From a virus, in the IMG/VR virus record IMGVR_UViG_3300045988_085459: a stretch of 64,000 nucleotides of DNA, one strand, 5' to 3'. Shown piece by piece: positions 13,881 to 14,365 of this stretch. The notes beneath the pieces were generated by a model, which was not told the DNA's origin, searched no databases, and worked only from the letters and a program-made list of their open reading frames with translations. Numbering within the stretch: the first letter of the stretch is position 1; the number at the start of each line of letters is the position of its first letter. A program made the translations under genes and the position numbers.

Positions 13881-14039
13881 ATGAATTTAAAAACTATAAA
13901 GCAGGCTCAAAAGAAATCTCCAGAAGAGCTGCAAGAATATCTTCATTTTAAACAGAGAGGTTCTATAACAAGAGCAAAGAAAGGAAAAGGTTCCTTTAAT
14001 AGAAAACTCAAGCATAAAAATCTTTTTGAAAATTCTTAA
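13881..14039 (+). CDS. small basic hypothetical protein (52 aa)
   Basis: ATG 13881 after AAAAGGGG SD; MNLKTIKQAQKKSPEELQEYLHFKQRGSITRAKKGKGSF... Confidence 0.35.
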   Translation: MNLKTIKQAQKKSPEELQEYLHFKQRGSITRAKKGKGSFNRKLKHKNLFENS

Positions 14040-14089
14040 TTTTTATTATATAATATATATAGAAAGTTAAGGAAAGGAAGTTTTGAGTT
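14020..14089 (+). promoter_or_regulatory. conserved promoter plus 5'UTR module
   Basis: TTGAAAAttcttaatttttattaTATAATatatatagaaagttaaggaaaggaagttttgagtt ATG. Confidence 0.6.
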
Positions 14090-14365
14090 ATGATTATTGC
14101 TTCTGCAATTAAATTTATTCCTCACTTTAGTAAGTACCCTGTAATTATTTGCGGGAAGCGCCATGCAGATTGCCTCGAAGAAGCATATCAGATGGGGTAT
14201 GAATGGGATAAAGAAGATTTAGTGCAAGGGTTCTTGACTGATGATGCTAAATTCCTTGATAGATACGACGCAAAGCCTGAAGCCCGCAGATGTAGACAGT
14301 TAATTGTCGATGATGACAAATATCGAGAATTGTTTAGTGAAGATATGTGGCTAGAGGAGGATTAA
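14090..14365 (+). CDS. hypothetical protein
   Basis: ORF track 91 aa. Confidence 0.55.
   Translation: MIIASAIKFIPHFSKYPVIICGKRHADCLEEAYQMGYEWDKEDLVQGFLTDDAKFLDRYDAKPEARRCRQLIVDDDKYRELFSEDMWLEED

Follow-up and report, generated by a model that had tools for sequence, protein, structure and literature searches.

The window analysed here is the 64,000-nucleotide stretch of IMG/VR virus record IMGVR_UViG_3300045988_085459, and its most repeated feature is a short promoter-like module, one copy of which, at 14020-14092, had been flagged in a preliminary description. The window belongs to a large phage genome. Its GC content varies from 31 to 43%, nearly every open reading frame (ORF) lies on the plus strand, and it encodes more than 30 tRNAs, a tmRNA and a tRNA with anticodon CUA. 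Pfam matches identify genes for RNA repair, NAD salvage, gyrase, DNA ligase, RNase H, ThyX and cell-wall hydrolases. A megablast search of 20 kb against deposited phage genomes found no close relative, matching tRNAs only, and a tblastn search with a protein resembling the major vault protein (MVP) found no cultured close relative, only unannotated huge-phage metagenome records. IMG/VR holds many related contigs of 100-240 kb.

At the flagged copy, TTGAAA (14026-14031) is followed by a 17-bp spacer, TATAAT (14049-14054), ATATATAGAAAGTTAAGGAAAGGAAGT (14055-14081) and an ATG at 14090. This copy reads TTATATAAT (TTA-TATAAT) and lacks the TG of the consensus first proposed. The element is present at all 23 positions listed in the preliminary description. 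A position matrix spanning -4 to +18 around the -10 hexamer, iterated from those 23 sites, matches the plus strand 28, 27 and 26 times at 12, 16 and 20 bits, against 0.34, 0.04 and 0.01 matches expected from 100 dinucleotide-preserving shuffles. Adding three modules found only by a generic hexamer scan (4991, 28037 and 45520) and removing an intragenic match at 48894 gives a set of 30 plus-strand modules, seven of which (597, 4991, 6569, 9334, 9951, 11243 and 28037) were absent from the earlier list. Minus-strand matches are echoes of A/T-rich, quasi-palindromic plus-strand sites, except for one true copy at 5648-5688, which is followed by a Shine-Dalgarno sequence and GTG, drives a 52-residue ORF (5629-5471) and is divergent from module P5733. 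All 31 copies, 30 plus and one minus, were aligned without gaps. An independent repeat finder returns the module as the largest repeat family of the window, with 17 copies of 54 nt. The repeated element is confirmed as real and highly non-random.

The core of the module consists of a TTGA -35 element, a 17-bp spacer, the sequence TAT(G/T)W-TATAAT and the block ATWTATAKAA. All 30 copies have a spacer of 17 bp; the hexamer is a perfect TATAAT in 25 of them, and at least four of its six positions match in every copy. Agreement of the -35 element with its consensus is complete in two copies, five of six in 11, four of six in eight and three of six in nine, with 1.1-1.7 bits at each of the TTGA positions. 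Upstream of the -10 hexamer, TG occurs in 14 of 30 copies and a full TRTG in 10, a T stands at -15 in 28, and most read TAT(G/T). Information exceeds one bit per position at TTGA, at TAT, at TATAAT, and from +6 to +15, the ATWTATAKAA block. Mean pairwise identity, for which chance is 32%, is 28% in the upstream region (-60 to -24), 54% over the -35 element and spacer (-23 to -7), 80% over the extended -10 and the -10 hexamer (-6 to +5), 77% over the downstream block (+6 to +15) and 40% over the leader and Shine-Dalgarno sequence (+16 to +35). The downstream block nearly always stands at a set distance from the -10 hexamer and scarcely ever occurs alone. A 33-nt promoter-plus-leader string is exact in three copies and found within six mismatches in five.

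Beyond +15 the modules share little but a ribosome-binding site. The distance from hexamer to start codon is tight (median 33 nt), and an A occupies the seventh nucleotide after the hexamer in 25 of 26 ORF-leading copies. If transcription is taken to start there, the predicted leaders measure about 27 nt, with a purine content of 74% and 2% C. Their GAAAGGA(A/G)G is the general ribosome-binding site of the phage, carried by internal genes also, and its predicted pairing with the 16S 3' end is equivalent in promoter-proximal (-10.4 kcal/mol) and internal (-9.5 kcal/mol) positions (p=0.42). No special leader-RNA structure was found, predicted folding being the same as at internal translation start regions. 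The idea that the leader RNA is special, either unusually unstructured or endowed with an extra-strong Shine-Dalgarno sequence, was rejected, since it equals internal genes on both counts. Four modules (9334, 9951, 11243 and 28037) head tRNAs and have neither Shine-Dalgarno sequence nor ATG; three of them keep ATTTATATAAG after the hexamer, while 28037 diverges there. As these four head tRNA operons, the core is not a translation signal, and the conservation pattern together with the tRNA-heading copies indicates that the conserved unit is a promoter reaching about 10 nt past the hexamer, not a translational leader. The earlier assertion of consensus sigma70 hexamers is borne out by the TTGA-type -35, the invariant spacer and TATAAT, with TG or TAT(G/T) upstream in most copies, and that of a near-identical promoter plus leader holds for the core but not for the leader.

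A search with the MVP-like protein (30789-33230) yielded loci from relatives, whose versions of it are 44-97% identical and whose GC content ranges from 30 to 47%; in most of them the module recurs on the coding strand, two to nine times per approximately 20 kb. The module is found at orthologous positions even where the neighboring protein is only about 45-55% identical. Just 3' of the MVP-like gene, a terminator hairpin is kept although the stem sequences are unrelated, and the promoter sequence itself is kept (a T-tail or TTGATTTTT, an A-rich spacer, and TKW-TATAAT-ATWTATAGAAA); a few relatives have lost the promoter at this site. That the positions stay orthologous where protein identity has fallen to about 50% points to vertical retention under selection. 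Across 18 relatives, sites picked by their -35 and -10 elements only show ATATATAGAAAAT downstream, at 0.8-1.1 bits per position. Variants just past the block are genome-specific, GAAAGT in the window and GAAAAT in relatives L127, L141 and L146.

The same module occurs in cultured phages. A sensitive BLAST search with one module against deposited phages returned many matches per genome in several of them: Enterococcus phages EF1 and VRE9, T5-like phages of Providencia, Yersinia and Salmonella, and Bacillus phage G. Its presence was noted in Providencia phage PSTCR5 and in Bacillus phage G. A literature search with the motif string returned no papers. Applied to 50 kb of T5 at a threshold of at least 12 bits, the window matrix finds seven matches on the early-gene strand and none on the other; all seven fall on annotated promoters, four of them scoring 22-24 bits, and the consensus of the T5 promoters after the -10 hexamer is ATWTWYATAAATTGATGAG. 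EF1 yields 11 matches in 50 kb, of which 10, judging from its annotation table, precede a coding sequence, a tRNA or, in one case, an unannotated ATG on the same strand. One EF1 copy reads TTGAAA-17-TGATATAAT-ATTTATATAAGTTAAAGAAAGGGAG-ATG, and the general form there is TTGAAA/TTGACT-17-TG(A/T)TATAAT-ATTTATATAAGTTAA, before ORFs and tRNAs alike. EF1, VRE9 and Bacillus phage G differ from the window phage in that no protein or DNA kinship was seen, and their records leave these promoters unannotated; a look for start-site maps of these phages found none.

The early promoters of T5 are a classical example of strong E. coli sigma70 promoters, and the early genes are transcribed by E. coli polymerase. 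In the studies of Gentz & Bujard 1985 and Kammerer et al. 1986, the transcribed "downstream region" of T5 promoters reportedly affects late steps of initiation. For the T5 N25 promoter, a purine-rich initial transcribed sequence favors escape and a pyrimidine-rich one impairs it (PMC12464699). The T5 early promoters (N25, P25/26/28, P207 and others) agree in consensus with the modules over the stretch between the extended -10 and about +20, with T(G/T)N-TATAAT-ATWTWYATAA, TT(G/A)A and a purine-rich Shine-Dalgarno sequence. T5 and the window also share the 17-bp spacer, dozens of copies on one strand, a start codon about 30 nt past the -10 hexamer, promoters set among tRNAs and small ORFs, and overlaps of promoter with terminator. 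They differ at the -35 element, which in T5 is TTGCT with a conserved AAAAT upstream and in the window TTGAAA, TTGCAA or TTGACA. The window shows no conserved A-rich block of the T5 type at about -43; identity in its upstream region is 28%, below the 32% of chance, and a terminator often occupies that space. In about half of the window copies a G follows the presumed start (TATAG), unlike in T5. The host of the window phage is probably of the Bacillota rather than E. coli, the window phage is TAG-recoded, and the comparison with T5 was one of promoters. The leader of P18977, GTTGAGAGAGGAAG, resembles TTTGAGAGAGGAG of the N25 promoter.

Terminators are frequent neighbors of the modules. We identified 17 clean intergenic plus-strand terminators, each a hairpin followed by a stretch with at least six T in eight, with predicted energies of -10 to -24 kcal/mol (16 of 17 at -13.8 or stronger); several were recovered by an independent scan too. 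Ten of them (1141, 3584, 33235, 35795, 39213, 41439, 43820, 52504, 57359 and 63648) lie directly upstream of a module, and where terminator and module are fused, the T-tail (TTTATT) fills the -35 position; the remaining 20 of 30 modules have no adjacent hairpin. T4-type promoter-early-stem-loop elements (PeSLs) are composite units of about 100 bp, made up of a terminating stem-loop, an early promoter of consensus sigma70 type and, at the 3' end, the Shine-Dalgarno sequence belonging to the gene that follows (PMC2839356, PMC4122927). The cassettes of the window share this combination and its repetition among small genes of unknown function, but a terminator adjoins no more than 10 of the 30 modules, polyG/polyC stems are absent, and lineage and host differ. 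Transcription units comprise one to six ORFs, or ORFs mixed with up to about 12 tRNAs. Only some seven are monocistronic, contrary to the many short monocistronic units first proposed, and with 17 clean terminators to 30 units it is not the case that each is closed by a hairpin of its own.

Module-driven units carry ORFans, tRNAs, RNA-repair, NAD-salvage and replication genes and the suppressor tRNA-CUA, a content which agrees with the early/middle class suggested before. TAG codons are concentrated elsewhere. Rich in them are a tail-fibre-like region (21946-26147) that is Mtd_N-like, its Mtd_N matches falling under the Pfam cut-off; the NAGPA+SPOR and lysozyme+amidase+SLH hydrolases at 49904-52170; and a GIY-YIG endonuclease gene (59405-60316). 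All of these stand in segments that come after a strong terminator and have no module, and the contrast of their TAG counts with those of module-driven segments, given below, speaks for the early/middle class. Most other genes of the window have no in-frame TAG, and single TAGs occur in 37769-39040, 47864-48325, 60581-61219 and 6610-7323. The recoded gut phages of Borges et al. likewise encode a suppressor tRNA for TAG; their recoding is concentrated in genes for structure, lysis and homing endonucleases, and their replication genes keep the standard code. In their report recoding marks late, lysis and homing-endonuclease genes and promoters are not mentioned (bioRxiv 10.1101/2021.08.26.457843); the layer of transcription units presented here adds to that picture.

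The recoded lysis genes, the GIY-YIG gene and ORF 26217 begin 10-23 nt past a strong terminator (49855-49904, 59369-59405 and 26154-26217). A promoter would not fit between terminator and recoded gene. Expression of these genes would need either read-through or a promoter located within the hairpin or 5' of it, and terminator read-through could be a second lock besides TAG suppression. A distinct late promoter before the recoded blocks was considered and rejected, the shared sequence GGNCAATTTATGTG occurring at chance level (two found, 1.65 expected). In relatives, heavily recoded ORFs with 5-14 TAGs each were also observed inside module operons (L130 13503-14267 and 15576-16592; L141 2589-3758, 13576-14478 and 15390-16157). 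By eye these appear homing-endonuclease-like, one with a GIY-YIG-type motif and the others with CxCxCG-SCGC zinc-finger-like repeats.

The proposal of a host that uses Shine-Dalgarno initiation, and is not of the Bacteroidetes, agrees with the TTGACA/TATAAT promoters, GAAAGGA(A/G)G, the -16 TRTG-like or TAT(G/T) motif, the SLH and SPOR lysis enzymes and mostly Bacillota co-binning. Judged from this indirect evidence, the host is probably a species of Bacillota. When bacterial genomes were scanned for the module 20-mer, contigs with multiple matches were from metagenome-assembled genomes with mixed but mostly Bacillota labels, probably binned phage, and matches in isolates were single and chance-like, so that the scan is weak evidence on the host.

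In our judgment the approximately 30 repeats are probably early/middle promoters of the housekeeping sigma70/sigmaA type, with a downstream region like that of T5 and often joined to terminators in the manner of T4 PeSLs. The module belongs to a well-known kind, the T5-type early promoters, and reveals no new kind of regulation. The housekeeping RNA polymerase of the host would read the modules into early/middle genes and tRNA operons. It would meet a -35 element, either TTGA(A/C)A or the T-tail of an upstream terminator, then the exact 17-bp A/T-rich spacer, a -16/extended -10 motif of Gram-positive style, TAT(G/T)W, followed by TATAAT and the A/T-only ATWTATAKAA, which would cover the discriminator, the start site and the first transcribed bases. 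Transcription would start at the A seven nucleotides past the hexamer and run into a purine-rich, nearly C-free leader of about 27 nt and a long Shine-Dalgarno sequence. The downstream block most likely acts on the polymerase, through easy melting, a fixed A start, and efficient escape by way of a purine-rich initial transcript. In a third of the modules the result would be a compact cassette of terminator, promoter and ribosome-binding site that insulates neighboring units, as do T4-type PeSLs.

Several points weigh against this interpretation. Nine modules match the -35 consensus at only three of six positions, and 16 have no TG. Conservation of the downstream block exceeds what general models of sigma70 promoters need, and its proposed role is argued by analogy with T5. 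Use of the host polymerase, the start site, strength, temporal class and the role of the block are inferred from sequence. Pfam searches of about 50 larger ORFs in the window found no sigma factor, polymerase or obvious regulator, but a phage gene for a sigma factor or polymerase may lie in the genome outside the window. The link between modules and the standard code (36/3476 TAG codons in module-less segments behind terminators versus 3/13268 in module-driven ones, Fisher p=1e-21) was defined post hoc, and a crude repeat of the comparison in eight relatives gave an odds ratio of only 1.8 (p=0.07).

Other explanations attach to particular parts of the pattern. The likeness of the copies might stem mainly from recombination or gene conversion between PeSL-type cassettes, the cassettes being crossover points for gene shuffling. 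The three copies of the exact 33-mer point in this direction, as do the identities of 47 nt between P9091 and P14049 and of 42 nt between P9951 and P11243; the layout of terminator, promoter and Shine-Dalgarno sequence fits the PeSL model (PMC2839356), and many of the flanked genes are ORFans. Yet module positions remain orthologous where protein identity to relatives has dropped to about 50%. Synteny, compared crudely with four relatives, shows insertions and deletions that are not clearly module-bounded and no clear sign of PeSL-mediated recombination or mini-circles; nor are the differences in gene content between the window and L123, L147 and L125 clearly bounded by modules. We regard recombination as an unlikely main source of the likeness, and it is in any case compatible with the promoter interpretation rather than exclusive of it. 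That the block ATWTATAKAA is an operator, by which a phage DNA-binding protein or a phage-modified polymerase would switch the early class jointly, is quite improbable in our view. Such a site would account for a block conserved nearly as well as the -10 hexamer (77% versus 80%), in fixed register and seldom alone, which is kept across divergent relatives with genome-specific variants just downstream (GAAAGT versus GAAAAT). But T5, PSTCR5, EF1 and Bacillus phage G carry the same block, where a common regulator would be unexpected, and Pfam detected no DNA-binding regulator among the larger ORFs of the window. Since the block recurs in phages whose hosts belong to different phyla, a clade-specific regulator site is unlikely and a role intrinsic to the polymerase more likely.

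Two further readings fare considerably worse. The leader had been suggested as a target for an RNA-binding regulator, and by analogy with T4 RegB it could be an RNA element through which a regulator or nuclease controls early mRNAs. Short purine-rich leaders, several of them with GAAAGTTAAGGAAAGGAAGT, would suit such an element, but identity over +16 to +35 is only 40% against 32% by chance, the GAAAGGA(A/G)G site serves internal genes at equal predicted strength, and predicted structure is like that of internal translation start regions. Moreover, the four tRNA-heading modules have no such leader, the transcript would include just some 4-5 nt of the conserved block, and the same block is found in unrelated phages; we consider this reading very improbable, and the suggested leader-binding regulator is not upheld. 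Scarcely credible is the last possibility, that an RNA polymerase encoded by the phage uses the contiguous sequence of about 21 bp, TGATATAATATWTATAGAAA, as its promoter. Conservation of this sequence does run contiguously through the presumed start, as in promoters of the T7/SP6 type, and we take the TATAG-AAA of the module to resemble the start region of promoters for the SP6 single-subunit polymerase. Against this, a TTGA -35 element is conserved at exactly 17 bp, annotated promoters of T5, whose early genes E. coli polymerase transcribes, carry this very sequence, and no polymerase gene was detected among the larger ORFs of the window scanned against Pfam.

A broader proposal is offered only tentatively, namely that ATWTATAKAA together with TT(G/A)A is a host-independent signature of phage early promoters which in this clade, with the terminators, may gate TAG-recoded lysis and tail-fibre-like genes. 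Such a signature would be convergent or retained in T5-like coliphages, Enterococcus phages, Bacillus phage G and the present clade, and would exploit a core property of bacterial RNA polymerase. Recoded genes that have no promoter of their own and lie behind terminators would need both read-through and the suppressor tRNA, itself produced from a module unit.

Table 1. Modules (from -35 to +17) and selected terminators of the window. Scores are position weight matrix bits for modules and dG in kcal/mol for terminators.
Feature	Coordinates	Strand	Score	Sigma70 scan	Remarks
P597	574..614	+	22.7		variant -10 TAATAT, TGG upstream; before ORF 634-1140
P1190	1167..1207	+	29.4		exact 33-nt copy; terminator T-tail TTTATT at -35; heads 5-gene unit
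P3639	3616..3656	+	29.1	10/12 with TG	TTGCAA-17-TGATATAAT; heads 3-gene unit
P4604	4581..4621	+	22.2		before ORF 4643-4951
P4991, weaker	4968..5008	+		11/12	TTGACT-17-TATAAT, downstream block divergent; before ORF 5034-5474
Sole true minus-strand module	5648..5688	-	20.2	12/12 with TG	TTGACA-17-TGTTATAAT-AAATATATAAAT
P5733	5710..5750	+	22.4	11/12 with TG	TTGACG-17-TGCTATAAT; before ORF 5768-6544
P6569, weaker	6546..6586	+	20.3		poor -35; heads unit beginning near 6610
P9091	9068..9108	+			exact 33-nt copy; before ORF 9133-9306
P9334	9311..9351	+	26.5		heads tRNA-Ile and tRNA-Leu
P9695	9672..9712	+	31.7		TTGAAA-17-TGATATAAT; before ORF 9731-9931
P9951	9928..9968	+	28.1		heads tRNA operon Asn, Leu, Leu
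P11243	11220..11260	+	28.1		heads long tRNA/small-ORF unit
P14049 (flagged)	14026..14066	+			leader runs on to 14081; ATG 14090
P18977	18954..18994	+	31.7		leader GTTGAGAGAGGAAG
P26439	26416..26456	+	23.5		long 54-nt distance to ATG 26499
P27155	27132..27172	+	28.8	12/12 with TG	perfect TTGACA-17-TGATATAAT; unit holds suppressor tRNA-CUA 27598-27672
P28037, probable	28014..28054	+			hexamer scan; TTGCAA-17-TATAAT, divergent downstream block; upstream of tRNA-Leu/tRNA-Cys region
P30454	30431..30471	+	22.3		heads unit with MVP-like gene
P33287	33264..33304	+	29.2		fused to terminator 33235-33270; orthologous site kept in relatives
P35851	35828..35868	+	31.1		fused to terminator 35795-35832
P39255	39232..39272	+	27.3		fused to terminator 39213-39232; heads NAD-salvage unit
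P41485	41462..41502	+	26.3		fused to terminator 41439-41465
P43865	43842..43882	+	26.6		fused to terminator 43820-43846
P45520	45497..45537	+		11/12	4-nt deletion in downstream block, TATAAT-ATAGAAAGTT
P47820	47797..47837	+	24.6		weak -35, TGATATAAT
P52577	52554..52594	+	20.5		TATTAT; after terminator 52504-52542; heads RNase H and gyrase B/A unit
P57419	57396..57436	+	24.1		fused to terminator 57359-57396; heads DNA ligase unit
P58814, weaker	58791..58831	+	15.2	11/12	TTGACT-17-TATAAT
P61239	61216..61256	+	25.2		TTGACA-17-TGTTATTAT
P63705	63682..63722	+	28.4		fused to terminator 63648-63685
Terminator	1141..1172	+	-18.3		T-tail is -35 position of P1190
Terminator	3584..3610	+	-16.5		immediately 5' of P3639
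Terminator, strong	21487..21515	+	-23.6		closes tRNA unit; module-less TAG-recoded tail-fibre-like block downstream
Terminator	33235..33270	+	-20.4		fused to P33287; hairpin kept in relatives, stem sequence differs
Terminator	35795..35832	+	-16.1		fused to P35851
Terminator	49855..49880	+	-15.6		23 nt 5' of TAG-recoded hydrolase genes 49904-52170, no module between
Terminator	59369..59394	+	-20.8		10 nt 5' of TAG-recoded GIY-YIG gene 59405-60316

The tRNA array holds several other features. A phage tmRNA lies within it at 17282-17602 (Rfam RF00023, 76.8 bits). A candidate twister-P1-like ribozyme at 12939-12996 scores 51.7 bits (E=3.7e-9), under the family gathering score of 67.2, and its 3' end is 6 nt upstream of tRNA-Ser (13002); by analogy it may process the 5' end of that tRNA. 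In recoded gut phages, theta ribozymes process tRNAs at their 3' ends (PMC10879173). A 117-nt tRNA that Rfam places at 19970-20086 probably contains an intron, and several tRNA-like T-arm/CCA ends and a D-arm-like segment (11185-11217, 13358-13396 and 10679-10706) went uncalled by ARAGORN. Because ARAGORN missed these, tRNA-like genes in the array probably exceed the 31 listed. Six copies of the motif ACAGCAAA lie on the plus strand (9559, 9974, 18805, 19525, 28084 and 25374) and none on the minus strand; five of the six copies are in tRNA-flanking or promoter-downstream spacers, as in AGACGCRTACAGCAAAT. Strings of a like kind, CATACAGCAAA, were seen downstream of tRNA-leading promoters in relatives L127 and L141. 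A 56-nt direct repeat (21526-21581 and 47731-47786, 98% identical) stands immediately 3' of two strong terminators; repeat and hairpin together fold well (z = -5.35), and among relatives the repeat was found only in near-identical ones.

Among protein-coding genes, a DUF2828/DUF7788 gene adjoins, within 28857-33230, the gene for the 813-residue MVP-like protein, in which shoulder and repeat domains of the major vault protein are combined with a Band 7 domain. Nearby are genes for an RNA ligase, a Thg1-like enzyme, RlaP and a kinase/phosphoesterase pair, and the genes around this locus form an RNA-repair or ribonucleoprotein-like set. The MVP-like gene is kept across the clade and is present also in huge-phage records of 462-735 kb. 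A cluster for NAD+ salvage and synthesis (39288-43822), divided over units P39255 and P41485, encodes an isochorismatase-family nicotinamidase-like protein, a PRPP-synthetase-like protein, a YqeY-like protein, NAPRTase and NAD synthase.

For this uncultured clade of large phages from gut and rumen, the modules provide a map of transcription that can be tested and mark the probable early genes. On this map the suppressor tRNA belongs to an early/middle unit, whereas the recoded lysis genes follow terminators, and a host of the Bacillota type is supported. As a natural set of presumably strong promoters, the modules could also serve Gram-positive synthetic biology. Recurrence of the downstream block across host phyla suggests what may be a simple rule for finding early promoters in metagenomic phage genomes.

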